This document shows positions 34,774 to 56,675 of a DNA stretch of 64,000 bases, piece by piece. The number at the start of each line of letters is the position of its first letter. Position 1 is the first letter of the stretch. Source of the DNA: a virus; the IMG/VR virus record IMGVR_UViG_3300045988_171089, one strand, 5' to 3'. Both the position numbers and the translations under genes were made by a program. The notes under the pieces are model-generated. The model saw only the letters and a list, made by a program, of their open reading frames with translations, had not been told where the DNA came from and made no database searches.

Positions 34774-35006
34774 TGGTGGCTACTTATCCTTTCGGTCTTT
34801 GTGATAAGGGCTAGATAGTGAACTTGTTGCTAGGGGCTAACCCCTCGGTACACTTCTATTATGACACACCTATAACCCCTATGCAAGCTGAAAATGTGTG
34901 AAATAGCTCACATAGGGGTTTAGTGTCATGCTGGGCTGTCCATCTAATCAGATAACCCCCTGGTGTAATACACCCCCTAACTACTAGCAGTGGGGCGTAT
35001 TGCGCT

Positions 35007-35465
35007 TTACAGGTAGTGCTCCCGCCAAGCTTGACGAGACATAATATAGGCTTCAACGCCCGACCCGTAACCAGCCTTAAATGCCCGGAGCGGCTTCTTG
35101 AGGTTGCGAACGTCCCAGCTGTAATCGTCTAGCTGTCTACCTTCATACCCTTCAACTATTACAAAGTCGTCATGGTCTTCGGTTTCCATGATGTCGCGTT
35201 GAGCTCGGTCGCGTGCCCGCTCAACACGGGGAATAAGATTGCTAATATCGCGGGCAATAAACTGTGCTGTCTGAATGGGCGTAAGGCTCTGGTTAGCATC
35301 ACCGCACTCAATGGCGACGTATCCCTTATAATCCCCCTGAAGGTCGCGTTCTAGCTTGTGTGCCCTGTTGAGCATCTTGTTTAGCTTGGTGATGCGCTTG
35401 TTGTAACGCCCGGTAATCTTTTCAACAGCCTGGAGCTTGAGGGTTTCAAGGTCGGTGTTTTCCAT
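35007..35465 (-). CDS. hypothetical protein (152 aa)
   Basis: ORF track. Confidence 0.5.
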   Translation of the reverse strand: MENTDLETLKLQAVEKITGRYNKRITKLNKMLNRAHKLERDLQGDYKGYVAIECGDANQSLTPIQTAQFIARDISNLIPRVERARDRAQRDIMETEDHDDFVIVEGYEGRQLDDYSWDVRNLKKPLRAFKAGYGSGVEAYIMSRQAWREHYL

Positions 35466-35554
35466 AGTTATCTTCCTTTTTTATTGGGTGTATATTGGCT
35501 AGGTGAAGCCCCACACCCTGCATGTTTAGCAAGGCGCGGGGTAGTATTGAGGGG

Positions 35555-35884
35555 TTAGCGGTAATTCTCAAACTTCTTGAGAAGTGCCCTGTTCAGGTCG
35601 CTAAAGTCCATCTCCGTGGCATAGTGCACGTTACCTTCTTCGTCAATTACGCCTTCACTCGAAACTTCGAGCGTGCGGTGGCTGTAGGGGAACCCGCCGC
35701 TAAGCCTGATACCAAGAATCTGCTTACGCCTGAATCGGGAAACCTGAATATAGTCACCATACATGACCGTTTCCTTACCAATACAGAGCTTCTTCTTGTT
35801 CGCGGTCAGGAACCCCATTACGTCTTGAATCTTGAGAGCGTCAGAAACGGTCATCTCGACAACATAATCTTCCACCAGGTACAT
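35555..35884 (-). CDS. hypothetical protein, tandem paralog 1 of 3
   Basis: Shares MTVSDAL...EDFSDL(T/N)(D/N/R)ALL(E/K)(K/E)FE with next two genes. Confidence 0.55.
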   Translation of the reverse strand: MYLVEDYVVEMTVSDALKIQDVMGFLTANKKKLCIGKETVMYGDYIQVSRFRRKQILGIRLSGGFPYSHRTLEVSSEGVIDEEGNVHYATEMDFSDLNRALLKKFENYR

Positions 35885-35932
35885 GATTAAATCCTTTCGA
35901 GTAGGTAGGTGTAGTGGGGTGGCTTGAAGGGG

Positions 35933-36298
35933 TTATGGGGTAATCTCAAACTTTTCGAGAAGAGCGTTGGTTAGGTCGCTAAAGTCTTCGCTAGGGATGT
36001 AGTACTCGTTGTACTCTTCATCAATCATTGCCAAACTTGCAATTTCGAGTACCTTACCACCCCATGAGTAGCGGTCATGGAACCTAATATTAAGTCCCTG
36101 TTCACCCTTGAGTCGGTGAACGTCGATAGACTCGTTGCCGGACGTGTACATGTATAAGCCACTATCAATGTTGTACTTACCGTTTGCGGGGAAAATATTA
36201 AGCTTCTCCCTATTCGCGGCAAGGAAGTCCTTTACTTCCTGAAGGGTAAGAGACTCGGGAACGGTCATGTATGCGTCAAATTCATCAATTCGGTGCAT
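35933..36298 (-). CDS. hypothetical protein, tandem paralog 2 of 3
   Basis: Paralog of 35555..35884 and 36344..36697. Confidence 0.55.
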   Translation of the reverse strand: MHRIDEFDAYMTVPESLTLQEVKDFLAANREKLNIFPANGKYNIDSGLYMYTSGNESIDVHRLKGEQGLNIRFHDRYSWGGKVLEIASLAMIDEEYNEYYIPSEDFSDLTNALLEKFEITP

Positions 36299-36343
36299 GG
36301 TTACAGTCCTTCCAATAAGGGGTGGTAGAGTGTTGCTTGAGGG

Positions 36344-36697
36344 CTAGTGAATGTCAGTCTCAAACTCTTCAAGAAGAGCGTCGGTCAGGTCGCTAAAGTC
36401 TTCGCAGGGAATAAGATACCCATAACCGTCTTCGTTGTACATGTCTTCACTCGAAAGTTCGAGCACCTTGTACTTTCCGCTGGGTGCGTTATTGGGTGCG
36501 AGGTATCGCGCTTTAAAGGTGATACCAAGCATCTGCTCACCATTGAAGCGGGGAACCTGGAGGTAGTTATCCGACAGGTGCAACTCGTCATCAATACCGA
36601 GCTCATCCTTGTTTTCGGTAAGAAACTCGATTACGTCCTGAAACTCAAGAGCATCGGAGACAGTCATACGGGCATCATAGTTATCAATCAGGTACAT
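36344..36697 (-). CDS. hypothetical protein, tandem paralog 3 of 3
   Basis: Paralog of 35555..35884 and 35933..36298. Confidence 0.55.
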   Translation of the reverse strand: MYLIDNYDARMTVSDALEFQDVIEFLTENKDELGIDDELHLSDNYLQVPRFNGEQMLGITFKARYLAPNNAPSGKYKVLELSSEDMYNEDGYGYLIPCEDFSDLTDALLEEFETDIH

Positions 36698-36774
36698 AAT
36701 TAAAACCTTTCGAGTAGGTAGGTATAGGGTGTAGGTAGTACCCCTTAGCGGGATACCCCCTTGCTTACATTTCT

Positions 36775-36803
36775 ATTATGGCACACCCATAACCCCTATG
36801 CAA
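36775..36803 (-). promoter_or_regulatory. representative of the conserved promoter family (TTGCAT-N17-CATAAT) with flanking dyad AACCCCTATG / CATAGGGGTT
   Basis: Dyad arms at 36791-36800 and 36828-36837 bracket the -35; downstream transcribed motif TATATAAGCAAGGGG. Confidence 0.55.
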
Positions 36804-36860
36804 GCCAGAATCACGTGAAATAGCTCACATAGGGGTTACGGGTTCTACTTATAATCTGGT

Positions 36861-37217
36861 TTAGTAATCGTCGTCGTCATGCTCTGTAAACATGACCAAA
36901 CTAAAGTTGTCATCATCATCGTAAGAGCCTCGCCGCCCAAATTCGGTCACACTATAGGAACCATCATCAGCGTCATATTCTTCGTGATAATATTCCCCAG
37001 CGGGGTCATATTCCTCATAATCATCATCGTGATACCCGTCATGTGGTTCACGGCTCCATGATTTATCCTCGTGATACTCTTCGCCGTAATCATCATGCCC
37101 CTCAGAATCAGGGGCGGGCTTTTCACCCTTATTACCAAGGGCGCTACCCCAGAGGGGAATACTATTCTTGATGCTGTCGATAATCTTGGTAATTGTGTCG
37201 ATTCCAAAAAGTGCCAT
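36861..37217 (-). CDS. hypothetical highly acidic protein (118 aa)
   Basis: ORF track; D/E/Y-rich. Confidence 0.45.
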   Translation of the reverse strand: MALFGIDTITKIIDSIKNSIPLWGSALGNKGEKPAPDSEGHDDYGEEYHEDKSWSREPHDGYHDDDYEEYDPAGEYYHEEYDADDGSYSVTEFGRRGSYDDDDNFSLVMFTEHDDDDY

Positions 37218-37248
37218 AGGTAAGTAACCTTTCGTTAGTGGGTGCTTT

Positions 37249-37641
37249 TTATCCTTCGTGGATAGCTAGGAACACGTCTCCAAGCCGGGTTACTCGAACA
37301 GCCGCGATTTTTCCTACACGCGCCCCGTCCTTACTTGTAATAGTCTTATTGACAAGGTACCGCTGGTTCATCATTGACTGCTCATTGATTGAAGCAATAA
37401 GCTCTGCATCACTATACAAGAACACCTTACCATTGACAGGTGCCCCGAATTGTGCGCGTCCAAATACGTAACCCGCTGTTGTTAGCAGGTGTTCTTTATC
37501 CATATTTTCAAGAACTTCTAGAATATCCTCTAGGGCGTACTTATCTCCAGTGACAGGTTTGCATGTTGCCTCAAGTACCCGTGCGACTTTCTTGCTCTTA
37601 ATCTTACTTACTGAAATTCCATGACAAGTGAAATATGCCAT
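37249..37641 (-). CDS. hypothetical protein, cassette gene A (130 aa)
   Basis: Paralog of 38209..38601 (same length). Confidence 0.55.
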   Translation of the reverse strand: MAYFTCHGISVSKIKSKKVARVLEATCKPVTGDKYALEDILEVLENMDKEHLLTTAGYVFGRAQFGAPVNGKVFLYSDAELIASINEQSMMNQRYLVNKTITSKDGARVGKIAAVRVTRLGDVFLAIHEG

Positions 37642-37666
37642 TAGCTTATCTTCCTATCTTCTAGCT

Positions 37667-38104
37667 TTAGGCACCACTAGCATCATACATAACGTACATG
37701 CTTCCAGTGTCCGATACGTAAACGTCACCAATCCTGAAAGTTGGGTTACGTGGCTCACCCCAATTGAACCGCTTGCCCACTAGTAAGCGAGGGTTCTTCA
37801 CGACTTCCAACGGTACATCAAGAATCTTCTCACCAAGCATGATGAGCGGCGCGGTCATCTTGATAGGGTCTACCACACCAAAGCTTACGTGAGCAAAAAT
37901 ATCGGCGTCAATGAAAGGTTCTACCCCATAACGACGATAGGCGCTTGATTCTTCCAGTAGGGCAAGACCCTTCATGATATTTTGTGGTGTGGCATACGGC
38001 TTATTGTCGTGATAGATAACATCTTTACCGATACAGCCCTTCAGCTCTTGGTTGCTCTTACTGTCAAGGGTGACCTTCGTGATGGGGATTTGGTTAAAGC
38101 CCAT
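37667..38104 (-). CDS. hypothetical protein, cassette gene B (145 aa)
   Basis: Paralog of 38617..39042. Confidence 0.55.
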   Translation of the reverse strand: MGFNQIPITKVTLDSKSNQELKGCIGKDVIYHDNKPYATPQNIMKGLALLEESSAYRRYGVEPFIDADIFAHVSFGVVDPIKMTAPLIMLGEKILDVPLEVVKNPRLLVGKRFNWGEPRNPTFRIGDVYVSDTGSMYVMYDASGA

Positions 38105-38208
38105 GATTTTCTACTTCTCTTTCTCTCAGTATATAGGTGTGTTGGTTACCTTCAAATGGAGACCGTGCGGTGTGCCCTGTCAAGCACCCCGCTACATGGC
38201 GTAACCTG

Positions 38209-38601
38209 TTATTCTTCGCGGATAGCTAAGAGTAGCCCTCCGTACTGGGTGACACGAATACTTTCAATGGTTCCTTTTCCACCGGCTTTTAGGGTCACCT
38301 CTTCGCCTAGTAGCTTGTTGGGGTCAAGCATTGCTCCTGCATCAAAAGTGCCTAAAACGTGCAAGTCGTCATTTAGGGTCACCTTTCCGCGATTCACTAC
38401 ACCGAATAGTGCGCCCTTGAAGGTGTAGCGGTACTTACTACCTCCATCATTGGAGGAGAACGCTTGAGTTTTCTCAAGTTTTTCAATGGCTGATAGGACA
38501 TCTTCTAGAGTGTACCCGCCATTGACCGGCTTGTACATTACTTGCAGTAGCTCTCCAACCTCAGTGGAGATGGTGAACGCTTTTGAGGGAATGGTTTCCA
38601 A
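38209..38601 (-). CDS. hypothetical protein, cassette gene A' (130 aa)
   Basis: Paralog of 37249..37641. Confidence 0.55.
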   Translation of the reverse strand: METIPSKAFTISTEVGELLQVMYKPVNGGYTLEDVLSAIEKLEKTQAFSSNDGGSKYRYTFKGALFGVVNRGKVTLNDDLHVLGTFDAGAMLDPNKLLGEEVTLKAGGKGTIESIRVTQYGGLLLAIREE

Positions 38602-38616
38602 GGTGTTTCCTTTCTA

Positions 38617-39042
38617 TCATCTAGCTATTCCGTATGCAATATATAGGGCACTCTGCCCTGTTGTATATACGCTGGTAATCTCGCATGTGTAGGTGGCACC
38701 TTCATACTTGAATTTCTTACCGACTAGGAGGGTGGGTTCTTTCAGAGCTTCTAGGGGTGCGTTTAGTAGCTTACGCCCGTCCGCAATAAGCGGCACGGTT
38801 TTCGATTCAGTATTTACTACACCAAATCCTGCAACCCTGAATGAGGGTACTGATGGTTCGTTCCAGTAATCGACGTATGCGTTATCTTCTCCAATGGCGG
38901 CGAGTCCGCGTAGAATGTCCTTCACAGCGCAGTATTCTCTGCCGTCCTTACGGATAATATTGTCGCTCAGGTATGCCTTGAGTACCCTGTTCGACTTCGT
39001 AGCTAAATGTACCTTCATGATGGGAATGAGGGGTGCACTCAT
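38617..39042 (-). CDS. hypothetical protein, cassette gene B' (141 aa)
   Basis: Paralog of 37667..38104. Confidence 0.55.
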   Translation of the reverse strand: MSAPLIPIMKVHLATKSNRVLKAYLSDNIIRKDGREYCAVKDILRGLAAIGEDNAYVDYWNEPSVPSFRVAGFGVVNTESKTVPLIADGRKLLNAPLEALKEPTLLVGKKFKYEGATYTCEITSVYTTGQSALYIAYGIAR

Positions 39043-39167
39043 GGTTTACGTTCCTTTACTCTTATAGGGGCGGGTAGGGGGTTGTTCCGTAACGGCACCC
39101 CTGGGGTGTTGGTGGCGTACCCCTAGTGCCTTTCTGGTTAGCTCTAGGGGTATGCCTGCGGGGTGGG

Positions 39168-39641
39168 TTATGCCATATAGAACGTGTCACTCACGTTGTG
39201 CTTGATGACCTGTCCGTCTTTGTCCTTGAACTCTTCACGCCCATCACAGACTGCTGTGTCGCTTTCTTTGTGGAGGAAGTACGAATATCCGGTGCTGGAC
39301 TTTTCAGGGTCACCGCTCCAGTTCGTCCAACCTTCCTCGGGGTCTGTGTACTTGTCAGCGTATCGCCACTGGTAGCTACCGCTGTGCCATTCTGAGCCGT
39401 CATAGGGGCATGAGCCCATAGAGCCGTCAGCGTTTAGGCACGGGCGCATTTCGTGGACGCTTTCATAATATCCGGGGCTGTAGTTTCGGATTTCTACACG
39501 GACTTCCTGGCTGGTTTCGTTCCTAATGCACGTATTAGGTTTTTCGGTGGCACTCATAACCCCGACTACGCCTAGACTAACCACCATTGCGGTTACCGCT
39601 TTACCGATTATACTACCAATGGTTTCTTCTTCGTCACTCAT
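39168..39641 (-). CDS. exported Cys-containing protein, family member 2 of 3
   Basis: See 32983..33429. Confidence 0.55.
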   Translation of the reverse strand: MSDEEETIGSIIGKAVTAMVVSLGVVGVMSATEKPNTCIRNETSQEVRVEIRNYSPGYYESVHEMRPCLNADGSMGSCPYDGSEWHSGSYQWRYADKYTDPEEGWTNWSGDPEKSSTGYSYFLHKESDTAVCDGREEFKDKDGQVIKHNVSDTFYMA

Positions 39642-39677
39642 TAGCTTTTCTTTTCGTAGTAGGTGTATTGGCGACGA

Positions 39678-40043
39678 CTACCGTTCTAGTTCCTTGAGGC
39701 AATTAACTACCGACTCGAAGGTGTCTACGCTTGCATCTGACCATTCAAAGTAATCTTCATGAATGGCTTCACCGTCTACCACGAGGGAGTTCTTAGAGTC
39801 CACACCCTCATAGATATACACTTCCATCTGCTGTTCTTGGTCGCCAAACTCAAGGTTGATGATACCAATCTGCTTACCCATAGGCTTACCAATCCAGCCG
39901 CCGGTGTACTCTCGAACGTTTTCGTTCTTCATGCTCTTCATAGTGTGCTCAATATGTGCGAAAATATCCTCGACGGTGTAAGTATTGGGGATGAAGATAT
40001 GGCGCTCGCGGCTAAACTCTTCGTTCATGAAGTCCCAGGACAT
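39678..40043 (-). CDS. hypothetical protein, paralog pair (121 aa)
   Basis: FSRERHI(F/Y)(I/L)P(N/D)TYTVEDIF(A/N)HIE shared with 40241..40561. Confidence 0.5.
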   Translation of the reverse strand: MSWDFMNEEFSRERHIFIPNTYTVEDIFAHIEHTMKSMKNENVREYTGGWIGKPMGKQIGIINLEFGDQEQQMEVYIYEGVDSKNSLVVDGEAIHEDYFEWSDASVDTFESVVNCLKELER

Positions 40044-40240
40044 GGTATCTATTCCTTTCAGGGGATAGTGGATAGTGGGTAGGTATCGGGGCGTTTCCCC
40101 GCTTACTTAATATACTTCCATTATGGCACACTCTAGTATGAGGTGCAACCTAAAACACTGTGATTTAAGCAACACTGCAATAAGAAACAGTAAACCCCTA
40201 GGCGCTCATTCACCTAGAGGTTTAATGTTACGTGCAACGC

Positions 40241-40561
40241 CTAGTCATTGAGTTTACCAAGGCACTCGATTACACTTTCAAAGGCGTTCACGCTTGCAGA
40301 CGACCAGTCTTCATAATCTTCACCGACGGTTTCACCGTCTACTACGAGGTGGTTGGATTCATAGATGCACACCTCAATTTCCTGTTCATTGTCGCCAAAC
40401 ACGAAGTGGATAATTCCAATCTGTTCACCGGCGGGTTCACCAAGGTTGCAGGAGGTGTATTCTATGGTGTCTTCGCTGGCTTCGATGTGGTTGAAAATAT
40501 CTTCAACGGTGTAGGTGTCAGGGAGGTAGATGTGGCGCTCGCGGCTAAAGAACTCGGTCAT
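40241..40561 (-). CDS. hypothetical protein, paralog pair (106 aa)
   Basis: Paralog of 39678..40043. Confidence 0.5.
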   Translation of the reverse strand: MTEFFSRERHIYLPDTYTVEDIFNHIEASEDTIEYTSCNLGEPAGEQIGIIHFVFGDNEQEIEVCIYESNHLVVDGETVGEDYEDWSSASVNAFESVIECLGKLND

Positions 40562-40886
40562 GATGTCATTCCTTTACAGTAGTGGGTAATAATGTTCGCG
40601 TGCGGGGTATATTCCCGCCCTATTGGTATATAACTATTATGGCACACTATATAGTTACTTGTAAGCTAAAGTCATGTGATTTACGGCACTTTTAGCAATA
40701 TGAAACCCTTAGAAGCATAAAAGCCACAGAAACCCCTGTGTTGCCCATTATTTTTACAGGGGTATAATTATGCCGCCTATACCCCCGAGTGCTTCTAGAG
40801 CCCCCTAGAGGGCTTCCAGGGGGTGTTTAGAGGCAATAGTGAAGCCCCTTAGCTTTATCTGTAGCTAAGGGGCTTCAATATTAGCC

Positions 40887-41345
40887 TTAGTGCTCTTCGT
40901 ATTCGCCTTCAATGTCCATGATTTCGTAGGAAGAGGAGGGGGACTCTTCAAGCTCAATGTCACCGAACAGGTATTCAGTCCATGCGGCTACCATGTCTTC
41001 AATCTTTGCGTCTACTTCATCCTGCACTTCCTTGAGATTGGCACCGGCGGGAATTTCCTGGGTGTGCTCAAAGTAGAGCTTTCCGTCCTTAATGGCTTCA
41101 CTGAACGCTTCAAGCTCTTCACCTGCAAGGTAGTAGATAGCCTCATCAAAACCGATAATGATACCGTCTTCGAGCTCCCACTCAACAGTTACGTAGTTGC
41201 TGATGTTAGTGAAGTCCTTGCTGTATGCGCCACATTCAAGCTCGGTACGGTTCAGGGTTTCAAAGCGTGCTACGAGCGGGGTTGCATGACCCTCGTCCTG
41301 AAGGGTTGCAAAAGCATTGCGGAGGTTAGCAATAGATACGGTCAT
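40887..41345 (-). CDS. hypothetical acidic protein; start moved to ATG 41345
   Basis: ORF track 40887..41474; conserved leader CTATCTACCGAAAGGG precedes 41345. Confidence 0.5.
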   Translation of the reverse strand: MTVSIANLRNAFATLQDEGHATPLVARFETLNRTELECGAYSKDFTNISNYVTVEWELEDGIIIGFDEAIYYLAGEELEAFSEAIKDGKLYFEHTQEIPAGANLKEVQDEVDAKIEDMVAAWTEYLFGDIELEESPSSSYEIMDIEGEYEEH

Positions 41346-41485
41346 GATGGTTACCCTTTCGGTAGATAGATAGATAGTGGAACTGGCATCAGGGGTAGCA
41401 CCCCTTTGCTTTATATAACTATTATAACACACTCTAGTAGAGTATGCAAGCTGAAACCATGTGAAATGAGCCATGTGACTAACGG

Positions 41486-41884
41486 CTAGTAGTCACAAAT
41501 ACCGCAATCGTTAGCATATTTAACAATCAGCTCACGGATAGCTGTACCGTCTTCATCAAATGCACAGCCGTAGCGGTGGAAGTCGTTCTCGCACATACAC
41601 TTATCTACTGGATGGTCTTTTGCGTCTTCGGGGTTCACGTATTCCAGTTCGTCGCAAATCTGCTCGTCGTCAAATCCAAAAAAGACAAACTTACCGTTTG
41701 TGTTAGGTGTATATTCTAGGCAGAACCAATGACCATTATTGAGCTCAAACTCAATGCGTTCACCATTGCGCTCTATAGTAGCTTGCTTGATAGAGTGGGT
41801 ACCCATGCCCTTGATATACTCAAAGATGCTACTGAACTTCACGTCGCCGTGTAGCTGATACTCCCAAACGGGATTGATAAACAT
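41486..41884 (-). CDS. hypothetical Cys-rich protein; start moved to ATG 41884 (SD AGAAGGGG)
   Basis: ORF track 41486..41959. Confidence 0.5.
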   Translation of the reverse strand: MFINPVWEYQLHGDVKFSSIFEYIKGMGTHSIKQATIERNGERIEFELNNGHWFCLEYTPNTNGKFVFFGFDDEQICDELEYVNPEDAKDHPVDKCMCENDFHRYGCAFDEDGTAIRELIVKYANDCGICDY

Positions 41885-42072
41885 TGGATTCCCCTTCTTG
41901 CTAGGTAGATACTGAATACTTGAGGGAATACCCCTCGGCGTATTCCTATTATGACACACCTACACCCCCCATGCAAGCTGAAACTATGTGAATTAGCTTA
42001 CATAGGGGGTGTTTTGGGGATATTCTCAGTATTGCCACCTAATCCGGGTCGCTCAAACATTTCATTCCATGT

Positions 42073-44105: not shown

Positions 44106-44531
44106 CTATTCGGCTACTTCTTCGAGGATGAGGGTCATGCCGTCGCAGTAGTATGCACCTTCATCGCCGCCGGTACGCACCCATTCCTCGTCTTCGGACT
44201 TGATGACCTTGTAGTGACCAGGCTTAGGGGTTTCGTATCCACGGTTAGACCAGGACTCAGCGACTTGGTTGCGGGTGCTAGGGTCGTATTCCCACTCATC
44301 ACCCGACTTCATGAGGCGGGTAACAGGGTACTCGATTAGTACGGCATCTTCGCCGTAGCGCTGATTTGCCTTCTTGACCGTGATAATGCTACCGGGGCGG
44401 GTTGCAAGGAAGAAAGAGTTTGCCATCTTCATAATGGCTTCATTATGTTCTTCCTGGGTTTCCCATTCGCTCTTTGCAATGCTCTTAGACATAAAGAGCG
44501 GGGAAACCTTGTAGGTCTTCTTTGCGGTCAT
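44106..44531 (-). CDS. hypothetical protein (141 aa)
   Basis: ORF track. Confidence 0.5.
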   Translation of the reverse strand: MTAKKTYKVSPLFMSKSIAKSEWETQEEHNEAIMKMANSFFLATRPGSIITVKKANQRYGEDAVLIEYPVTRLMKSGDEWEYDPSTRNQVAESWSNRGYETPKPGHYKVIKSEDEEWVRTGGDEGAYYCDGMTLILEEVAE

Positions 44532-44675
44532 AGTGTCCAGCCTTTCGGTAGGTAGTTAGTGGATTACGTGTTAGGGGTGATTCCCTAACGGCTTATATAA
44601 CTATTATGGCACACCCCTAACCCTTACGCAAGCTAAAATCATATGAAATAGCTCACATAAGGGTTATTTAAGGGG

Positions 44676-49414: not shown

Positions 49415-49798
49415 CTAGTGTGCTCGCCAATCCATGCGCTCACGTGTCGCCTTATCAACATTCTTTACAAGCTTATCAATCTTCTTGCCCCAGATGGTAG
49501 TTATCATGCCGCGCTTGTTCGGGTGAAGAGCCATATGACGGATAGGGTTAGGGTCAGTGAGAGCCTTGTTTAGCTCGATAATAAGGTTAGTCGCTTTCTT
49601 AATGAGGTTAAGGTGCTTATTGGCAATCTTATTTGCTTCACGCTCACCCTCCACGGTCAGCGTGTCATCACCCTTAGCGTCATTAATGTAAACAGCCAGG
49701 AGGAAGTTACCTTCCTTGAGGACGTTGAGGGCGCTCATAACGCGGTCAATATCTGAGAGAAGCAGGTCAGCAAGCTTATTCTTAGTAATAACGGACAT
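49415..49798 (-). CDS. hypothetical protein (127 aa)
   Basis: ORF track. Confidence 0.5.
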   Translation of the reverse strand: MSVITKNKLADLLLSDIDRVMSALNVLKEGNFLLAVYINDAKGDDTLTVEGEREANKIANKHLNLIKKATNLIIELNKALTDPNPIRHMALHPNKRGMITTIWGKKIDKLVKNVDKATRERMDWRAH

Positions 49799-49901
49799 GA
49801 TATAGTTTTCCTTTTCTTGTTTAGTAGTTGTTTGGTCTGTTAGCCCCGCCCCTGTGGTTAGGGGCGGGGTGCTAAGGGGGGCGGACTAGTTGAGCGGCTT
49901 A

Positions 49902-50219
49902 CTACTCTTCATCTTCATCTTCATCATCCCAGTATTCGTCTTCGTCTTCCTCAATTTCAGCGGTCAGATAACCTTCTTCCCAGTTGATTTCAAGGTCGTA
50001 ATAACCGTTCTTAATGAGGGCGCGCTCTTCGTCATAGGAACCGTTCACCTCAACCTCGACCGACTCAACGGATTCACCGTCTTCACTCCAGCGTGCGAGG
50101 ATATTGAGCCAATGGTTGCTGTTTTCGTAAATCTGGCTGGTACGGATTTCGTAACCCGCTTCGATTGCCTCGATAACTTCCTCGTGGTTCTTGAGTTCAA
50201 AGTATGCCATGATGGTCAC
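49902..50219 (-). CDS. hypothetical acidic protein (105 aa)
   Basis: ORF track. Confidence 0.5.
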   Translation of the reverse strand: MTIMAYFELKNHEEVIEAIEAGYEIRTSQIYENSNHWLNILARWSEDGESVESVEVEVNGSYDEERALIKNGYYDLEINWEEGYLTAEIEEDEDEYWDDEDEDEE

Positions 50220-50396
50220 CCTTCCGGTAGATAGGTAGTGGACTAGCTCTAGGGTGGTTTCCCCGTCGCCTTATATAACTATCATACCACACCCTAGCGG
50301 GTATGCAAGTCAGAATCATGTGAACCTAGTCACATTAGACCCTCTATAGGGAAAGACCCCCTATAAGCATTTCCTTATAGAGGGTCTTTCTTGCTC

Positions 50397-50684
50397 TTAG
50401 CTTTCCGCTTCTTCTGATAGCGAGTTTACAGCCCGCCCCTTCTCCCTAAGCTCATCATAGTACCGCATGGCATAACCAACGTAGGCGACGAATACAAAGA
50501 AGTAAACCTTGGTTACATAGATGATAACATTATTGACCACCGATAGGGCAGGGTCAGTTACCCAAGTTATAAAGATTGAGCTGATAACCATCAATGCAAG
50601 TAGTGTCGTGAATGTGTGGAGCATCTTACCGACCGGCGCGTTCTTACTGAATTTCCAACGCACACCACAACGGTGCGCGAACAA
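50397..50684 (-). CDS. small membrane protein (95 aa)
   Basis: ORF track; TM helices. Confidence 0.45.
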   Translation of the reverse strand: MFAHRCGVRWKFSKNAPVGKMLHTFTTLLALMVISSIFITWVTDPALSVVNNVIIYVTKVYFFVFVAYVGYAMRYYDELREKGRAVNSLSEEAES

Positions 50685-50756
50685 GAATACACCTACGGTA
50701 ATTAGTGCAAGGATAGCTACGCTAATAATGTTCGGAATGTCTATTTGGTGTGATTC

Positions 50757-51128
50757 CTACTCTTCCTCTGCTAGTTCTGCGAGATGCTTATCTAGCTCTT
50801 TCTCCATCTCTTCCGTAGTGTACTTTATACCAGAGGCATACCCGAGCATAAAACCAATAACCACGCCATAGGCAAGCATGGCAAGCAAGTTAATAGCTTC
50901 ACCTACGCCACCAAGCCCGTTAGCCTCGAGCCAATGGCGGAAAATAATCCTGGCGATAAGAATAAGGTTGATAAAGGGTACGACATAGAGGCATTTATCT
51001 AGTGTTGAGTTTTCACTGAACTTTAGGGAAACATTATTCTTAACGCATCCCACAAGCGATACTATAAGCCCTAGTGCAACAAAGGTAATGCTGAATACAT
51101 CACCTGATGTTAGGTGTAGTTCATTCAT
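50757..51128 (-). CDS. membrane protein (123 aa)
   Basis: ORF track; TM helices. Confidence 0.5.
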   Translation of the reverse strand: MNELHLTSGDVFSITFVALGLIVSLVGCVKNNVSLKFSENSTLDKCLYVVPFINLILIARIIFRHWLEANGLGGVGEAINLLAMLAYGVVIGFMLGYASGIKYTTEEMEKELDKHLAELAEEE

Positions 51129-51151
51129 GGTTCAGGTTTCCTTACTGTTTC

Positions 51152-51418
51152 TTAGCGGTCTTCGTCTAGACACCAACACTCATTATTGATGCAGTCTTCT
51201 TCGTCTTCTTCGAGCTTGCAGGTGTTGCCGGTGACAGTGGCGTAGAACGTGCGGTGGTATTCGTATTCCCCGAGGGTGTTTTCGTAGGTGACGAAGACCT
51301 TAATGGGGCTTCCTTCACCGTCGATAGGCTTACCGATTTCAATTTCGATAATGCGGTTATCCTTGTTTGAGTATTCGCTCTTGATTGCTTCTTCAATAAG
51401 GGTTGTAGTGGTGCTCAT
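51152..51418 (-). CDS. hypothetical protein (88 aa)
   Basis: ORF track. Confidence 0.45.
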   Translation of the reverse strand: MSTTTTLIEEAIKSEYSNKDNRIIEIEIGKPIDGEGSPIKVFVTYENTLGEYEYHRTFYATVTGNTCKLEEDEEDCINNECWCLDEDR

Positions 51419-51518
51419 TGGGCTCAGGTTCCTCTCTAAGGGACTTTCTATGGATTAACTAGTACTTGTTCCCCCTATACGGTTATTGCGCCTTATAGGG
51501 GGTACTAGGGGCTTTGGG

Positions 51519-51845
51519 TTAGATTTCCCATTCGCCGCTACTAATAGATACGGTGCCGGTCACCCAGTCGATTGACTCGAAGGCGGCGTTATAGTCACCA
51601 CCGAAACCGCTAAGGATATTATATGCATCGAAGCTGTCGCCGCGTAGTTTAATCTTGAACTTTTCGCCGCCTGCAAGAACGGTCATGCGCGCCTTGGAGG
51701 TCTTAGCGTCGGGCTTGAAGCTGGGGAGGTGTAGCTTAACCTTGAGCTTGCTAACTAGCGGCTTATTACCTTGTGCAATGAGCTGGGTGAGTCGCTTAGG
51801 GGTGTTGAAATAGAACTCTAGCCCGTAAAATTCCATGATGCCCAT
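51519..51845 (-). CDS. hypothetical protein (108 aa)
   Basis: ORF track. Confidence 0.5.
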   Translation of the reverse strand: MGIMEFYGLEFYFNTPKRLTQLIAQGNKPLVSKLKVKLHLPSFKPDAKTSKARMTVLAGGEKFKIKLRGDSFDAYNILSGFGGDYNAAFESIDWVTGTVSISSGEWEI

Positions 51846-51941
51846 GATGGTTACATTCCTTTCAATGTGTGTTGTAAAAAGGGGTTCCGGTTTCCCCTGT
51901 AGTGCTTGTTTACTACAGGAGAAACCGCTTAGGGGTTTGGT

Positions 51942-52337
51942 TTAGAACCAGCCGGTATCCTGCGGGAAATTCTCGATATTGATGTACAGGTAGAATCCGG
52001 CGGTGTCAAACTCTGCATTGTAGCCAACAAGGTTATGAACGTCCATTAGGTCGTAGATTGCGGCTTCACCACGGTCGGGGTACTGCAAGTAAGCGGATAC
52101 CTCATACGACTCACCCTTATACTCGATTTCCAACGGTACACCATTGCCGTCGTGGAAGGTGAAGCGCCGCTTCTTATCGTCCGGCGTGTAGGTGGTGGTT
52201 ACATGCTTTGCGTTCTCAACAATGAAGTCACGCACATCCTTTTCAGCCATGCCGGGCACAATATCAACGAGGGCGTGGAACTCAACGCCGCCGGGAAAGT
52301 TGATTACGGATTCGCGGATGGTGTTCATGATTAGCAC
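51942..52337 (-). CDS. hypothetical protein (131 aa)
   Basis: ORF track; conserved leader and promoter upstream. Confidence 0.5.
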   Translation of the reverse strand: MLIMNTIRESVINFPGGVEFHALVDIVPGMAEKDVRDFIVENAKHVTTTYTPDDKKRRFTFHDGNGVPLEIEYKGESYEVSAYLQYPDRGEAAIYDLMDVHNLVGYNAEFDTAGFYLYINIENFPQDTGWF

Positions 52338-52506
52338 CTTTCAGTAGATAGATAGTGAAAGTAGTAGTAGAGGTTTCCCTCTTGCTTATATAACTATTAT
52401 GACACAACCGTTAGGGGTATGCAAGTTAGAATAATGTGAATTACCTCACATAGGGGCTAGGGGTGAGACAGGGTTAGGGGGATTACTCGCCCTATTTGCA
52501 AAATAC

Positions 52507-52968
52507 CTAAATGAATGTAATGCTCATGCGTTCCTTATCGAACTTAACGGGTTGCTCAGTCTGATTTTCCATCATCTCACGGAAACGTTCTGCCTGTTCG
52601 CCTTCCTTGACATGGATAAGTGCTGAAATATCATAATTATATGCATAGTAATAATCATGAACCTCGGCGGCAATGAAGCAATGGTCATCAGGGTTGTTCG
52701 GGTTGCTACTATCAAGTAGTGCAATTTCAAATACCTCAAAACCCTCGGGGATTTCATGGCTTTCCGTAAGGCTGTGGAAGCCAAGGTATTTATAGACATT
52801 CTGGTTGCCAAATTCTTCCATAACGCCAATATGGGTGATATTGTCTGCAATGAGGTCTGCGAGGTATTCAGTGGGAAGCGAGTCATACAGGGGGTCGCCC
52901 CATTCGCGCATAGGATTGTAAAAGAGTGAGCAAGTTCCGTGATAGCCCTGCATCTTATAGGTTTCCAT
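52507..52968 (-). CDS. hypothetical protein (153 aa)
   Basis: ORF track. Confidence 0.5.
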   Translation of the reverse strand: METYKMQGYHGTCSLFYNPMREWGDPLYDSLPTEYLADLIADNITHIGVMEEFGNQNVYKYLGFHSLTESHEIPEGFEVFEIALLDSSNPNNPDDHCFIAAEVHDYYYAYNYDISALIHVKEGEQAERFREMMENQTEQPVKFDKERMSITFI

Positions 52969-53062
52969 GAATGTCTTTCCTTTCTGAAAGTAACGGGGTT
53001 AGGGGATTCCCTAACCCCTATCTTCCATTCAGATAAACGTTAGGGGTGTTATGGGTTGCTGT

Positions 53063-53467
53063 TTAGCGGTATTCTACGCGCTCATTTTCCCAATATAGGG
53101 CGACGGTACAGAAGATAATACTCTGTGCTTCCTCGTCAATGTCTCGCACCAGAACGGTTCCTCCTGATACGTTACGGGTTGCCATGTACTCAATAAGCTT
53201 CGGGTCTTCACTAAGTACCGCAATTTCGCCGGTAATCCGCTCATATGTTTCATCATTGCTTACAGACAGGCGGAAGTCGTCTTCGTTGAGTAGGATTCCG
53301 TCGTAGCGTTCCTTCTCTTCGTTCCAGCGGACAATGAAACAGGCAATATAGGTGCCCTTGAATACCTGGGCGACTTCCTCGAAAGTGAACCCGTCGATTG
53401 AGTCTGGAGTGAACCGGAAGAAAATGCCGTTTGTTTCGTACTTTTCGGTGTAGTTAATATTGTTCAT
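53063..53467 (-). CDS. hypothetical protein (134 aa)
   Basis: ORF track. Confidence 0.5.
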   Translation of the reverse strand: MNNINYTEKYETNGIFFRFTPDSIDGFTFEEVAQVFKGTYIACFIVRWNEEKERYDGILLNEDDFRLSVSNDETYERITGEIAVLSEDPKLIEYMATRNVSGGTVLVRDIDEEAQSIIFCTVALYWENERVEYR

Positions 53468-53548
53468 TGTTGGTGTCCTTTGTTGCGTATAGGGTTACCC
53501 CCCTATGGTGGGTAGAAACCATAGGGGGGGTGGTACTGGGGGTTTGGG

Positions 53549-54067
53549 TTACTCAGTACCCAGCACTTCGTTGCCCTGTCGCTTGGTGTCTTCGTAGCGG
53601 TGCATGAGGGTGACGAACTCACGCTCGAAGATGCGTGCCTTCTTCTTGTGTGCGTTCAGGGCGGCGGTGAGGCGTGCTACCTTCATTTCTTCGAGGTTGG
53701 TCATACCCTTCTCTTCGTAAGGTTCGGTAGCGAAGTCGCCGCTACGGATTTCCTTAATGTCGTCGGTTGCAACCACGCGGTAGAGGTTTACACGGTTTGC
53801 GAACTTGTGGAGGTCGGTTACAAGCTGGCTGGATTCGATAGAGTGCCCCAGCTTGTCATCACTGAAAATGTCGCCGTCGATAGTGTCTGCAAAGCCCTTG
53901 CCGTAAGAGCGAATCATCACGTCCAACTGCATACGGTTAGGCTGGCGCTGGAATACGTTAGCGTGTGCGCGGCTCATGATTTCCCAGTCAGCCATACGCT
54001 TCAGGGCTTCAGCACCAATACGGTCGGTGAGGGTGTTGATGGTGTCGTTCAGGTTTGCGGTGGTCAT
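53549..54067 (-). CDS. hypothetical protein (172 aa)
   Basis: ORF track. Confidence 0.5.
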   Translation of the reverse strand: MTTANLNDTINTLTDRIGAEALKRMADWEIMSRAHANVFQRQPNRMQLDVMIRSYGKGFADTIDGDIFSDDKLGHSIESSQLVTDLHKFANRVNLYRVVATDDIKEIRSGDFATEPYEEKGMTNLEEMKVARLTAALNAHKKKARIFEREFVTLMHRYEDTKRQGNEVLGTE

Positions 54068-54217
54068 GATGTCCAGCCTTCCAGTTGGTAGATAGTGAAC
54101 TGTGCTCTAGGGGTTATCCCCTTGCTTATGTAATTATTATGACACACCCCTAACCCCTACGCAAGCTGAAACTGTGTGAAATAGCTCACATGGGGGTTAG
54201 GGTGGTGAGTCATAGGG

Positions 54218-54655
54218 CTAAAGCAATTCCCTGGCGGCAGGCACAAACTTAGCCGTGAACGCTAGAATCAAACTGTAACCGATAGCAAAGTTTGTAACAT
54301 AAGAAGCAATTACAAGAGGAGGTGCAATGAGTATATTACCCAGCCCAACGCAACCCAGCGCCCCAAGAGTTATCGGGGTAAGGGTAACAAATGAAAGAAT
54401 GGCAACCAAAAAAGCTAGGAATAGTGAAGTAAACCCAAGAAGTTTAAACTTACCCCCCCCCGCCTTATCATCAACCAAAAAAGCTAGGCACCCAAATAGG
54501 GCGACGACTAGACCGGGAATTACAAAAACAAGCCATGCAAGAAAATTCATGGGGAAACTTGCAGGGTGTACAGTAGTTACAGCATCTATCAATATGTTCA
54601 TACGGTATATGATGCCCGAAAAGCACTTATGGGCGCTAGGTATAGTACCTAACAC
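54218..54655 (-). CDS. membrane protein (145 aa)
   Basis: ORF track; TM helices. Confidence 0.5.
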   Translation of the reverse strand: MLGTIPSAHKCFSGIIYRMNILIDAVTTVHPASFPMNFLAWLVFVIPGLVVALFGCLAFLVDDKAGGGKFKLLGFTSLFLAFLVAILSFVTLTPITLGALGCVGLGNILIAPPLVIASYVTNFAIGYSLILAFTAKFVPAARELL

Positions 54656-54679
54656 CCATAAGGGGGGGATGGGGGGGTA

Positions 54680-54979
54680 TTAGCCCTGAAGCTTTTCCAG
54701 GTGCTTAATGAACGCCCGCGCTACTCCATTCGCCTGCATGTCGATAAGTTCGCCACCCTTACCCCAGCCGTATGCGGCGAGCTTGCAGTTTTCGTTATCG
54801 CCCTTGATTACCTCTACTTCCAGGGTAATATCTGCAAAATCGGTGCGGACATGGCACTCGCCAATGGACTCTGCGGGGTTGAACTTTGATACGTGCTCTT
54901 CCAGCTTGTCAATGCCACGGATTGCGCGGTTAGGAACCATGATAATAACTTCGTGGTTTGCGTTGGTCATGATTAGCAC
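54680..54979 (-). CDS. hypothetical protein (99 aa)
   Basis: ORF track. Confidence 0.5.
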   Translation of the reverse strand: MLIMTNANHEVIIMVPNRAIRGIDKLEEHVSKFNPAESIGECHVRTDFADITLEVEVIKGDNENCKLAAYGWGKGGELIDMQANGVARAFIKHLEKLQG

Positions 54980-55152
54980 CTTTCGGTAGATAGTGGACTG
55001 TTTGAGGGGCTAAGCCCTCGGTACACTTCTATTATGGCACACCTATAACCCTTGTGCAAATCTAAATCACGTGAAATAGGTCACATAGGGGTTAGTCGTA
55101 GGGGGTTACCCATAATAAGGGTGAAACACAGCGGAATATATATGTTTAGCGC

Positions 55153-55890
55153 CTAAAAGAACAGGTCATCATCATAATCACCCTCAAAGGCACCCAGCAA
55201 CACCTGATACACACGAAGCGTTTCCTTACATGCTTCCAGGTGCTCATCACTCAAGGCGGCGTAGGATACCGGGCTAACATACCCCAGAATCATTTGGGGT
55301 ATGAACACATCACCGTAGAAACTTTCTTCTTCTGAGTAATATTCTACAGCTTCTTGAATGTACTTACCTTTACGTTCGTTGAGTGTCCCGTCTGGGTTGA
55401 ATTGCTCTGAGTAGAAACGCGGCGGTTCGTCGCTGTCAAAATCTTCCTCCGCCGGGTCTGTAATGAACCGCGAATAGCACGAGTCCGCTTGACGTATTAG
55501 CTCATCTTCCGGGATTCCAGTATTTCGGGAAACCTCACCAACCGTAAGCAAAGTACCGCTAAAGAACGCAGGGATATTACCCGATAGGTGGTCCACACGC
55601 CCAGCCTGCATCTCATGCTTACAGTAGTTGATGCGTGCTTCAAGAATCTCACGGCTAGGTAGCGCCTTCAGCAACTCCAGGGCATCATATGGTGCCTTAC
55701 GATAGTCGGGGTATGTTCCCCAGTCTAGGGCTTCCTCGATAGCCTTCAATCGCGGGTCTTTAGTGGGTTCATATGCCCTCATAGTGTTATACACAAGGTT
55801 AGCCACTCGCAATAGGTCTGCGGGCGGGGTGACCGTTTCAGGTGTGACTTCTACCCAGGTAGGCTCTTCTTTGTCGCTCTTCTTGGGCAT
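55153..55890 (-). CDS. hypothetical protein (245 aa)
   Basis: ORF track. Confidence 0.55.
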   Translation of the reverse strand: MPKKSDKEEPTWVEVTPETVTPPADLLRVANLVYNTMRAYEPTKDPRLKAIEEALDWGTYPDYRKAPYDALELLKALPSREILEARINYCKHEMQAGRVDHLSGNIPAFFSGTLLTVGEVSRNTGIPEDELIRQADSCYSRFITDPAEEDFDSDEPPRFYSEQFNPDGTLNERKGKYIQEAVEYYSEEESFYGDVFIPQMILGYVSPVSYAALSDEHLEACKETLRVYQVLLGAFEGDYDDDLFF

Positions 55891-56115
55891 AGTGTTATTT
55901 CCTTCCAGGTGGGAAATGGTGGATTATGTGGCTAGATGGGTTTTCTAGCGCCTATGTAAGCCATTATGTCAGGCTTAACCGGGGGCGTGCAACTCTCAAA
56001 GCCAAACACGCCTAATTATACAGGTGCCCCGGTCTATAGGGGTACAGTAGCACCCCGCCCTGCATGTCTCACGCTAGGGCGGGGTGTTTGTCATAGGGTT
56101 ACCCCTATGGGGTGG

Positions 56116-56451
56116 TTACATGAAGGTCACACAGGGGACTTCGTTCACACCCAGGGTTACAGCCTGTGAATCAAAAGCAGGACTTGCAGGCTCTTCGATA
56201 AGAACATCAAGCCCAATGTACTTGGTGCACGCCTTATCGGTGAAAAGCTCAAGGGTTACACTGCTTACGCCATACTTATTAATCTTGTAGTAAAGAACCG
56301 TGTCGGGGGTAATACCCAGACCCATCATAACACGCTTGAAGATGTAGCTAAAGTTTTCGCGTCCATCGTAGTTTACATCTTCGAGTGCGTTCAGCATGTA
56401 AGACTTAGCGTTGCTCTCGGTGAAGATGTCCTGAATTGCGTAGGTGCTCAT
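56116..56451 (-). CDS. hypothetical protein (111 aa)
   Basis: ORF track. Confidence 0.5.
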   Translation of the reverse strand: MSTYAIQDIFTESNAKSYMLNALEDVNYDGRENFSYIFKRVMMGLGITPDTVLYYKINKYGVSSVTLELFTDKACTKYIGLDVLIEEPASPAFDSQAVTLGVNEVPCVTFM

Positions 56452-56675
56452 GGTCGGTAACCTTTCGGTAGATAGATAGTGGATTCATTGCTAGGGGCTT
56501 TCCCCCTTGCTATACTTCTATTATGACACACCCATAACCCCTATGCAAGTTAAAAACGTGTGAATTAGGTCACATAGGGGTTATGGGGCGTGTTCTACTA
56601 TCTTCTACCTACAGGCCTTAGTGTCTCTAGGGGTCTATCAATCTATCGAGCGGTTCGCAGTCTAGGTAAGACTCC

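Follow-up and report, generated by a model that had tools for sequence, protein, structure and literature searches.

The 64,000-nucleotide (nt) stretch of the virus record IMGVR_UViG_3300045988_171089 that was analysed here, referred to below as the window, carries many copies of a conserved block upstream of small genes, which raises the question of what this repeat does. An earlier note on this DNA had described the block as a promoter with a dyad flanking its -35 element, followed by a conserved leader, and had proposed that one regulator serves the whole gene set. We found that the block, here called the module, is part of a cassette of approximately 140 bases that includes a strong hairpin, a palindrome, a promoter-like core, a leader and a Shine-Dalgarno sequence. 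The anatomy of the cassettes, their statistics, their covariation and their conservation across relatives were observed directly in the DNA. The model that we favour overall is that the cassettes probably are the standardised transcription-unit boundaries of a large uncultivated phage.

When the window was searched with the extended -10 word TGTGTCATAATAG, allowing at most two mismatches, 19 matches were obtained, every one of them on the minus strand; shuffles gave an expectation of 1.4. A 73-bp profile built from 18 module copies detected 21 full copies (E <= 4e-5), every one on the minus strand, and partial matches at 26941 and 5545. These copies aligned without gaps from approximately 60 nt upstream of the -10 element to 10 nt downstream of it, and the gapped 18-base pattern TCAC-N11-TTGC-N14-TGTGNCATAAT had 13 exact matches where none was expected. 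The repeat is therefore real and far beyond chance; all 20 positions listed in the earlier note were recovered in register, together with a copy at 9089-9161 that had been missed. Every module points at a gene 50-78 nt downstream or at tRNAs, the latter being the case for three modules, namely a tandem pair before the tRNA array and one before tRNA-Lys. The module does not stand before almost every small gene, as had been stated: between 34.8 and 56.6 kb there are 13 modules for approximately 40 genes, or roughly one in three, and the units comprise 1-9 genes.

Megablast of 8 kb of the window against the INPHARED phages gave no DNA match. The gapped pattern matched one IMG/VR contig and more than 114 metagenome contig stretches, many of which lie on contigs of 176-306 kb with several matches each. 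Profile searching of the related metagenome loci yielded 281 further module copies in 87 loci, and after only in-register and unique copies had been kept, the family-wide set comprised 247 instances. Given that window proteins recur on contigs of 260-291 kb from several samples, and that module matches span 75-100 kb on each large contig, the module is a family trait of phages of approximately 290 kb and marks roughly one-third of the genome. The earlier note had named absence of the motifs from related phages as grounds for giving up its reading; because the relatives carry this module at hundreds of their junctions, this objection fails.

Module positions are given as columns of the 73-column profile, with the predicted start at position 70. 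Over the 247 copies, the conserved blocks of the upstream part are A8-T-G-T-G-A13, T16-A17, T19-T-C-A-C-A24, T28-T30, R32-R33 and T35-T-G-C-A39, and those of the downstream part are G50-R-G52, T53-G-T-G56, any base at 57, C58-A-T-A-A-T63 and A64-G65; information content peaks at TTGCA, TGTG and CATAAT. The promoter consensus of these unique copies, derived in silico, is a -35 element TTGCA(T/A/C), a 17-bp spacer and an extended -10 element TGTGnCATAAT, and the TTGCAT-N17-CATAAT spacing with its TGTG extension, as first noted, is correct in the aligned copies. Position 69 is T or C in 239 of the 247 copies and position 70 is A or G in equally many; this pyrimidine-purine step, 7 nt after the -10 element, is the usual place for a start and was taken as the predicted one. 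The extended -10 element resembles the SigA consensus of Corynebacterium glutamicum, tgngnTA(c/t)aaTgg (PMC1779776), and the -35 element resembles the Corynebacterium consensus ttgnca (PMC5483222). We consider it very probable that the modules are sigma-70/SigA-type promoters heading transcription units, an interpretation with good in silico support. A second promoter with TTCACA in the role of -35 element was rejected, there being no -10 element at the right distance, as was a MotA box, which would lie at the wrong position.

Two other promoter-like sites were seen on the minus strand. At 26,941-27,010, a different promoter type, lacking both the TTGCA -35 element and the palindrome, consists of a perfect terminator-like hairpin, atagcccctaat...attaggggctat, and then TGTGGTATAAT. 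At 55,960-56,110, between two cassettes, a G+C-rich hairpin (ccccgccct...agggcgggg) is followed by a weaker promoter-like TTGCAC-N17-GACATAAT, which has no palindrome and precedes a gene for a 245-aa protein at 55,153-55,890.

Upstream of the -35 element, positions 9-24 read TGTGA-(C/G)C-TA-TT-TCACA, a 16-bp palindrome. Although the search pattern did not include its TGTGA half, the information content there is 1.0-1.9 bits per position. As many as 219 of the 247 copies match TGTGANNTANNTCACA with at most two mismatches, 48 of them perfectly, and the window has 14 matches to TGTGA-N6-TCACA with at most one mismatch (1.8 expected), every one of them within a module. The palindrome centre is 21 bp from the -35 centre in a fixed register, which places it at approximately -53.5 from the predicted start at position 70, or at -51.5 to -55.5 if the start were at positions 68-72. 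Both halves keep their sequence instead of covarying, as expected for a protein site. TGTGANNTANNTCACA is quoted as the C. glutamicum GlxR consensus (PMC4254451) and also forms the core of the CRP consensus (PMC10187061). Furthermore, upstream CRP sites activate transcription in actinobacteria, an example being CRP1 of Mycobacterium tuberculosis whiB1 at -58.5 (PMC2844151, PMC4117774). Domain searches detected no helix-turn-helix (HTH), sigma or CRP-type domain among the approximately 80 window proteins, where the earlier note had suggested looking for a phage-encoded HTH protein, and when E. coli and M. tuberculosis CRP were compared by phmmer with every open reading frame (ORF) in the window and in 1.1 Mb of related loci, nothing scored below E = 0.2. 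These negative results modestly favour a host factor. Binding of the palindrome by a host CRP-family protein is a serious possibility, although we would not call it probable. The proposal of a single trans-acting factor for the whole set remains plausible, and its likely site would be the palindrome, which had been read only as "TGAGCTATTTCAC", and not the dyad. A CcpA cre site was rejected because the spacing is 5-6-5 here and 5-4-5 in cre.

The dyad AACCCCTATG/CATAGGGGTT does flank the -35 element, but only in a minority of copies. Copies in which positions 1-8 and 40-47 form 7 or all of the 8 possible Watson-Crick pairs were designated class A, and those forming at most 4 of them class B. 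Class A comprises 63 of the 247 unique copies (about a quarter) and class B 153; in the window, the dyad is present in 6-8 of the 21 copies. In class A the pairing runs inward via TGTGAGCT/AGCTTGCA and outward to position -3, giving 17-21 pairs around a loop of 13-15 nt, so that positions -3..17 pair with 31..51 and the -35 region forms the 3' arm. At positions 11:37, 237 of the 247 copies have T.G, and at 12:36, 228 have G.T; these combinations can pair in RNA alone, and there in the sense strand alone. The mean folding energy is -24.8 kcal/mol (z -6.6) for class A segments and -8.9 for class B segments, and six window copies fold at -25 to -34 kcal/mol (z -6.3 to -7.7).

Compensatory changes in the dyad arms, as the earlier note had reported, were confirmed by covariation counts in an ungapped alignment of 66 copies tested against 500 shuffles. 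Pairing was found in 81.7% of helix cells versus 75.1% in shuffles, and 87 helix cells were changed on both sides versus 40 in shuffles; none of the 500 shuffles reached either observed value. Both-side changes occurred at 13 of the 21 helix pairs, and slid-register controls paired at 28-50%. The arm variants include CCCTTATG/CATAAGGG, CCCCCATG/CATGGGGG and CCCCTTTG/CAAAGGGG, and even full GGGG/CCCC arm swaps occur, e.g., GGGGTATG.../...CACCCC. The copies had been preselected for pairing at 8 of the 21 pairs, a selection that does not affect the both-side changes or the other 13 pairs. A mutual-information analysis of the module columns recovered mostly subfamily structure, not pairs.

The DNA preceding the module showed the complementary pattern. 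Folding energies of the 73 nt upstream are -25.0 kcal/mol for class B, against -13.6 for class A and -15.6 for random controls (p = 1.5e-15, Mann-Whitney test). The hairpins of class B are of considerable length and rich in G+C. In 57 of 136 class B copies there is a single hairpin of -12 kcal/mol or lower, mostly ending at most 35 nt from the module (47 of the 57 within 20 nt), and 33 of the 57 are followed by at least four U in the next 8 nt. This contrast between the classes indicated that every cassette carries one strong hairpin, either separate from the promoter or laid over the palindrome and the -35 element. Such a pattern is predicted by a terminator, an insulator or a processing stem-loop, and not by an operator model. 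A covarying, transcribed stem-loop, serving as terminator, processing site or 3'-end protector, fits the features of the dyad, and we think it rather likely that the hairpin acts on RNA.

Between the predicted start and the gene lies a leader with a median length of 62 nt (interquartile range, 59-67). The leader start (T)AAGCAAGGGG described in the earlier note is found in about one-third of the window copies, whereas a second class starts with GTACCGAGGGG or GTAGCGAGGAAG. The first 39 nt fold at a mean of -9.4 kcal/mol versus -5.5 for random segments, with a mean z of -2.6 and z < -1 in 88% of the copies. The hairpin begins at +6..+10 from the predicted 5' end and has a core stem of 4-6 bp and a loop of 4-6 nt; among its 80 distinct 5' arms (e.g., AGGGG, GGAAGU, GGUGGU and GUACCC), pairing is kept and sequence is not. 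RNAalifold predicted no pairs in the MAFFT-aligned leaders because the hairpins are not in register, and per-sequence folding versus shuffles and controls was therefore used instead. The hairpin may protect or stabilise the 5' end, which we regard as possible and somewhat short of probable. In 224 aligned copies, a G-poor C/A/U tract at -31..-16 (5-28 G) is followed by a GAAAGG Shine-Dalgarno sequence at -15..-10, then A at -3, C at -1 and the ATG, the pre-start consensus being ...CACTATCTAYCTACCGAAAGG-N9-ATG. GAAAGG pairs with the ...CCUUUCU-type 3' end of the 16S rRNA of Gram-positive bacteria. The claim that the same block precedes most start codons did not hold, since only six matches were found at three or fewer mismatches, all of them behind modules. 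A function shared by the leaders is plausible, given the conserved 5' hairpin, the G-poor tract and GAAAGG, and it would concern the cassette-linked genes only.

Assembled into the cassette model, these elements would act in the following order. A strong RNA hairpin, placed 0-35 nt upstream of the promoter in class B or over it in class A, would end, insulate or process incoming transcripts. The palindrome TGTGA-NN-TA-NN-TCACA at approximately -53.5 would bind one dimeric regulator of the CRP/FNR family, most likely a host CRP/GlxR-type protein acting as activator, so that one factor would gate the whole gene set. Host RNA polymerase with its primary sigma factor would read TTGCA(T), the 17-bp spacer and TGTGnCATAAT(A/G)G and begin at the pyrimidine-purine step. 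The resulting leader of approximately 62 nt would carry a 5' hairpin protecting its end, and the G-poor tract, GAAAGG and ATG would follow. In an extended form that we hold to be doubtful, an oral/gut phage family of approximately 290 kb infecting Gram-positive (probably actinobacterial) hosts would tie its entire early hyperplastic arm (75-100 kb, at least 20-28 promoters per genome) to a host cyclic AMP (cAMP)-CRP/GlxR-type regulator via the -53.5 palindrome; infection would then read the metabolic state of the host and phage DNA, as it replicates, could titrate the regulator, while a quarter of the cassettes would share terminator and promoter DNA, with the -35 element as the 3' terminator arm.

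A number of points weigh against this model. Promoter activity, start site and termination are all predicted from sequence, as is the identity of the bound protein. TTGCAT has only three of the six bases of the E. coli -35 consensus, and C at -12, present in 95% of the copies, is unusual. A generic sigma-70 scan gave no excess (24 sites versus 22.9 in shuffles) and picked up 2 of the 11 modules in the scanned stretch, at 40.6 and 55.0 kb, both at minimum score; this sigma-70/terminator scan is insensitive here because TTGCAT scores three of six. The class A helix is followed by a weak U-tract, UUAUAGGUGUG, making termination by class A hairpins uncertain. Canonical activating positions of CRP are -61.5 (class I) and -41.5 (class II), and -71.5 is also used; the centre at -53.5 matches none of these, nor the -58.5 of M. 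tuberculosis, and this spacing is the weakest link of the CRP reading. Only approximately 10 bp, the conserved TTT included, lie between the palindrome and the -35 element to accommodate the polymerase alpha subunit's C-terminal domain (alpha-CTD), and there is a partial fit of the palindrome to Rex-type operators as well. The leader hairpin is as stable in its antisense fold as in its sense fold, so its role as RNA is deduced from covariation and not from strand asymmetry. Finally, an actinobacterial host is only suggested.

Other explanations account for part of these observations. The outer dyad could be a DNA operator at which a phage HTH repressor clamps the -35 element and switches the early set off. 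Its arms do flank the -35 element and show good conservation between 34.8 and 56.6 kb, and multi-copy operators are known in actinophages, e.g., the stoperators of cluster A. We nevertheless judge this very unlikely: the dyad is absent from three-quarters of the modules, its arms change sequence while keeping their pairing, up to complete G/C swaps, and the 17-21 bp of pairing cross T.G/G.T positions that pair only as RNA. Moreover, the half-site centres are 37 bp apart and thus on opposite helix faces, the dyad and the upstream hairpins are mutually exclusive, and the window encodes no HTH protein that we could find. That complementary distribution with ordinary upstream hairpins, which points to an RNA role, also bears on the idea that the class A palindrome extrudes under supercoiling as a DNA cruciform, hiding the -35 element that lies inside its 3' arm and making the promoter supercoiling-sensitive; as extrusion is disfavoured by the central spacer of 13 nt and by the two invariant T.G mismatches, this seems extremely unlikely.

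A phage factor could be involved in place of host CRP, be it an activator, a protein that appropriates sigma or a sigma factor of the phage, encoded elsewhere in the approximately 290-kb genome or injected, which would read the palindrome together with the non-consensus promoter features (C at -12, TTGCAT and AG after the -10 element). The extreme uniformity over more than 240 copies, the non-canonical -53.5 position and the conserved positions outside standard elements (TTT at 28-30, RR at 32-33 and GRG before TGTG) would suit such a factor, and the genome coverage inspected amounts to 64 kb plus fragments. The site, however, fits the CRP/GlxR consensus exactly, the domain and homology searches described above brought up no candidate, and genes needing a phage-made activator could not be expressed first; we consider this explanation rather unlikely. 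The modules might instead be mainly recombination substrates, i.e., portable blocks of homology through which gene cassettes are shuffled or mini-circles arise, with promoter function secondary, for which the promoter-early stem-loops (PeSLs) of T4-type phages offer a precedent (PMC2839356, PMC4122927). Among 131 homology breakpoints against relatives, 22 fall in modules where 8 were expected by length (2.75-fold, p = 1e-5), clustered at module edges, and neighbouring paralogous genes each carry a module. Compared with the intergenic background, though, the excess is not significant (6.7 versus 4.6 breakpoints per kb, p = 0.15), several gene replacements lie in module-free stretches, and BLAST alignments tend to stop at the edges of any conserved repeat, which makes a mainly recombinational role unlikely in our estimation. 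One homology block, shared with the relative L001, stops at 55029, inside the cassette with the predicted start at 55024.

The cassettes of the window, as interpreted under the cassette model, are listed in the table.

Table. Promoter cassettes of the window, in descending order of position. Energies are in kcal/mol; starts are predicted.
Cassette	Strand	Description	Hairpin or helix	Module and its elements	Predicted start	Leader and downstream gene
56449..56586	-	Exemplar; class A (hairpin over promoter)	helix 56532-56586, RNA fold -25.3, z -6.7	palindrome TGTGACCTAATTCACA 56559-56574; -35 TTGCAT 56543-56548; TGTGT+CATAAT 56520-56530	56513	leader hairpin ~56490-56510; G-poor tract 56467-56483; Shine-Dalgarno GAAAGG 56461-56466; ATG 56449-56451, 111-aa ORFan
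54968..55097	-	Degenerate outer helix	-12.7	palindrome 55070-55085; -35 55054-55059; -10 55031-55036	55024	gene 54680-54970
54065..54202	-	Class A	helix 54148-54202, -29.1	palindrome 54175-54190; -10 54136-54141	54129	gene 53549-54067
52326..52458	-	Left arm only	no helix	palindrome 52435-52450; -35 52419-52424; -10 52396-52401	52389	gene 51942-52328
50208..50390	-	Class B	upstream hairpin 50351-50390, -26.7	module 50270-50342, register shift 1-2 nt	~50273	gene 49902-50210
44529..44669	-	Class A, compensated arms CCCTTATG/CGTAAGGG	helix 44615-44669, -25.7	palindrome 44642-44657	44596	gene 44106-44531
41882..42014	-	Class A	helix 41960-42014, -32.4	palindrome 41987-42002	41941	gene 41486-41884
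41343..41483	-	Class B		module 41411-41483; -10 TATAAT	41414	gene 40887-41345
40559..40776	-	Class B	upstream hairpin 40723-40776, -15.6, T-rich tail	module 40626-40698	40629	gene 40241-40561
40041..40229	-	Class B	upstream hairpin 40186-40229, -23.6	module 40110-40182	40113	gene 39678-40043
36695..36841	-	Class A	helix 36787-36841, -33.7, z -7.7	palindrome 36814-36829	36768	gene 36344-36697
34771..34924	-	Class A	helix 34870-34924, -25.1	palindrome 34897-34912	34851	gene 34567-34773
30989..31110	-	Class B, 2-nt register shift			~31041	gene 30524-30991, downstream of flotillin gene
24668..24796	-	Class B			24727	gene 24092-24670
23371..23655	-	Two tandem modules	hairpin before each module	modules 23528-23600 and 23400-23472		directly before tRNA array (tRNA-Glu 23297-23370 onward)
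14139..14333	-	Class B	upstream hairpin 14298-14333, -23.8	module 14214-14286	14217	gene 13815-14141, then RNA ligase gene
12421..12589	-	Degenerate outer helix		palindrome 12562-12577	12516	
9003..9161	-	Module absent from the earlier list		module 9089-9161; -10 CCTAAT		90 nt before tRNA-Lys 8927-9002
6412..6543	-	Class B		palindrome TGTGACCAGGTTCACA 6520-6535	6474	gene 6055-6414
2736..2895	-	Class B	upstream hairpin 2864-2895, -24.8, tail TTTTTTAT	module 2787-2859	2790	gene 2412-2738

Besides the cassettes, the window holds 16 tRNAs and genes for Ro60/TROVE-vWA, RNA ligase, TnpB, flotillin and PspA/IM30 proteins, and approximately 60 small ORFs without a Pfam family, some of them tandem paralogues; gene replacements occur even between near-identical relatives. 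ORFan paralogue families with 23-57% identity, in tandem or dispersed, lie on the minus strand at 35,555-36,697, 37,249-39,042, 39,678-40,561 and 33,429/39,641/46,462. The paralogue pair at 40,561 and 40,043 has a cassette for each gene, which implies duplication of whole cassette-plus-gene units. An array of 15-16 tRNAs at 20,068-23,370 and a solitary tRNA-Lys at 8,927-9,002, both on the minus strand, are each headed by a promoter module; within the array, ARAGORN could not assign the anticodon loop of the tRNA at 22,225-22,297, and 20,068-20,125 is a weak tRNA-like match. A full-length TnpB/IS605 OrfB gene (HTH_OrfB, OrfB_IS605 and Cas12f1-like TNB domains) at 18,381-19,946 on the minus strand adjoins the array; it is 83-91% identical in related phages, and no TnpA was seen. 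The Ro60/TROVE + vWA protein (2,916-4,517, minus) and the RNA ligase (PHA02142 OB-fold + RNA_ligase; 12,664-13,731, minus) suggest an RNA quality-control or repair set; an Rfam scan found only tRNAs and no Y-RNA-like partner at the gathering threshold. PspA/IM30 (9,225-10,112), a YgjV-like membrane protein (28,954-29,658) and flotillin (SPFH/Band 7 + Flot; 31,197-32,780) are minus-strand genes of the membrane-stress or membrane-organising kind.

With respect to the host, TnpB has its nearest named cellular homologues in Rothia (55-56% identity), the named homologues nearest to PspA all come from actinobacteria (Micrococcus, Catellatospora and Sanguibacter, 37-42% identity), and the best phage matches of the RNA ligase are Arthrobacter and Microbacterium phages. 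On the basis of these homologues and of the promoter and Shine-Dalgarno style, we give an actinobacterial host about an even chance, with Rothia as one candidate. Oral jumbo phages have been reported from a Chinese dental plaque, saliva and stool cohort (bioRxiv 10.1101/2020.07.06.186817); the source run of one related contig, ERR589685, shares its accession prefix with that cohort, and other related contigs are labelled "human gut metagenome". Blastn of the TnpB region against E. coli genomes gave no match. Flotillin was rejected as a host marker: its 60-64% homologues lie in other, unrelated phages of 25% G+C, without modules, beside NrdD, NAMPT and PNK/RNA ligase. Likewise, a Clostridia host lead was dropped; of 15 single pattern matches in bacterial genomes and metagenome-assembled genomes (MAGs), 7 were in Clostridia MAGs, but none fits the full profile and approximately 17 were expected by chance.

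To the other side of the cassettes, strand composition becomes extremely asymmetric at 57,240-58,300 and 58,800-63,200, where the genes switch from the minus to the plus strand. The plus strand is nearly all A/C at 57,240-57,600, only C/T at 57,600-57,720 and only G/T at 57,720-58,260. The following plus-strand coding region is depleted of A (3-5% A, ~42% G and ~43% T at 59.2-60.4 kb) and encodes a Gly/Val/Ser-rich protein of approximately 530 aa starting MSTRLIDADTPSVGG, with ORFs open on both strands. Because this region is 90% identical over 3.9 kb in the relative L096, it is not an assembly artefact. It could be an origin or a terminus, or its transcripts may be built without A-containing nuclease sites.

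If the cassettes work as proposed, they would provide a ready-made transcription-unit map for an uncultivated jumbo phage family, as well as an expression cassette for Gram-positive or actinobacterial hosts that is compact and portable and comprises an insulator hairpin, an activator site, a strong promoter, a stabilising leader and a ribosome-binding site. They would also be a case, open to test, in which a phage has placed dozens of promoters under a single global regulator of its host, and the class A form suggests that the same bases can encode a terminator stem and a -35 element. For phages without a cultured relative, the palindrome and the SigA-like extended -10 element are clues to the host.

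Several known systems resemble the cassettes in part. T4, a large lytic phage, has dozens of very similar, very strong early promoters for host RNA polymerase, with conservation well upstream of the -35 element. The present family is likewise one of large phages with many near-identical promoters conserved beyond the -35 element, but the upstream conservation of T4 is A/T-rich and UP-element-like, whereas here it is a G/C-containing palindrome. With CRP/GlxR promoters (whiB1, PMC2844151; GlxR regulon, PMC4254451, PMC10187061), the cassettes share the 16-bp TGTGANNTANNTCACA and a fixed upstream site two helical turns from the -35 centre. Unlike class I CRP sites, the predicted centre at -53.5 is 5-8 bp closer to the start, and unlike in host CRP/GlxR regulons, where sites are scattered, the site of predicted CRP binding is in every one of more than 240 phage promoters.

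Another partial parallel is the SAS of cluster K mycobacteriophages, a 13-bp motif, GGGATAGGAGCCC, located 3-8 bp from the start codon; approximately half of the SAS copies have conserved 17-bp inverted repeats with a variable spacer just upstream (ESAS), and the function of both is unknown (PMC3203893). Like SAS/ESAS, the cassettes are one-orientation repeats in actinophage-type genomes and are associated with the translation starts of some of the non-structural genes. The motif sequence is unrelated, however, GGGATAGGAGCCC not being found in the pre-start consensus given above; the arms of the leader hairpin vary freely whereas ESAS arms keep their sequence, and the repeat described here contains a whole promoter with a palindrome upstream of it.

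Closest to the cassettes among known systems are the PeSLs, which consist of a stem-loop terminator, a sigma-70-like early promoter, a Shine-Dalgarno sequence and a start codon, lie between ORFans in hyperplastic regions of the T4-type phages RB49/phi1, T4/PST and KVP40/nt-1, and have been implicated in modular shuffling (PMC2839356, PMC4122927). Four of their defining features were found here in silico: a sigma-70-like promoter repeated with a phage-specific consensus; a stem-loop directly upstream of the promoter, or laid over it in class A, with a predicted terminator role; a 3' end made up of a Shine-Dalgarno sequence and a start codon; and many copies in one orientation among small ORFans, in a plastic region of a large phage that also holds tRNAs. 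As with PeSLs, the cassettes sit at many mosaic boundaries, although the excess of breakpoints in modules given above is significant relative to length and not relative to other intergenic DNA. Unlike the PeSL phages, the present family has no DNA relation to any INPHARED phage and its host is probably Gram-positive or actinobacterial; the window contains no T4 core gene, the structural and replication genes lying outside it. The elements themselves differ in their ungapped and much longer conservation, over approximately 75 bp upstream of the start, in their conserved 5' leader hairpin, and in their fixed CRP/GlxR-type palindrome, where the PeSL papers describe only an AT-rich upstream region (PMC2839356, PMC4122927). 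In one-quarter of the copies, furthermore, the stem-loop overlies the promoter with the -35 element within the stem, and such sharing of terminator and promoter DNA would be a compaction not described for PeSLs. Compared with PeSLs, then, the palindrome, the 5' hairpin, the long ungapped conservation, the class A form, and the phage lineage with its likely host are new.

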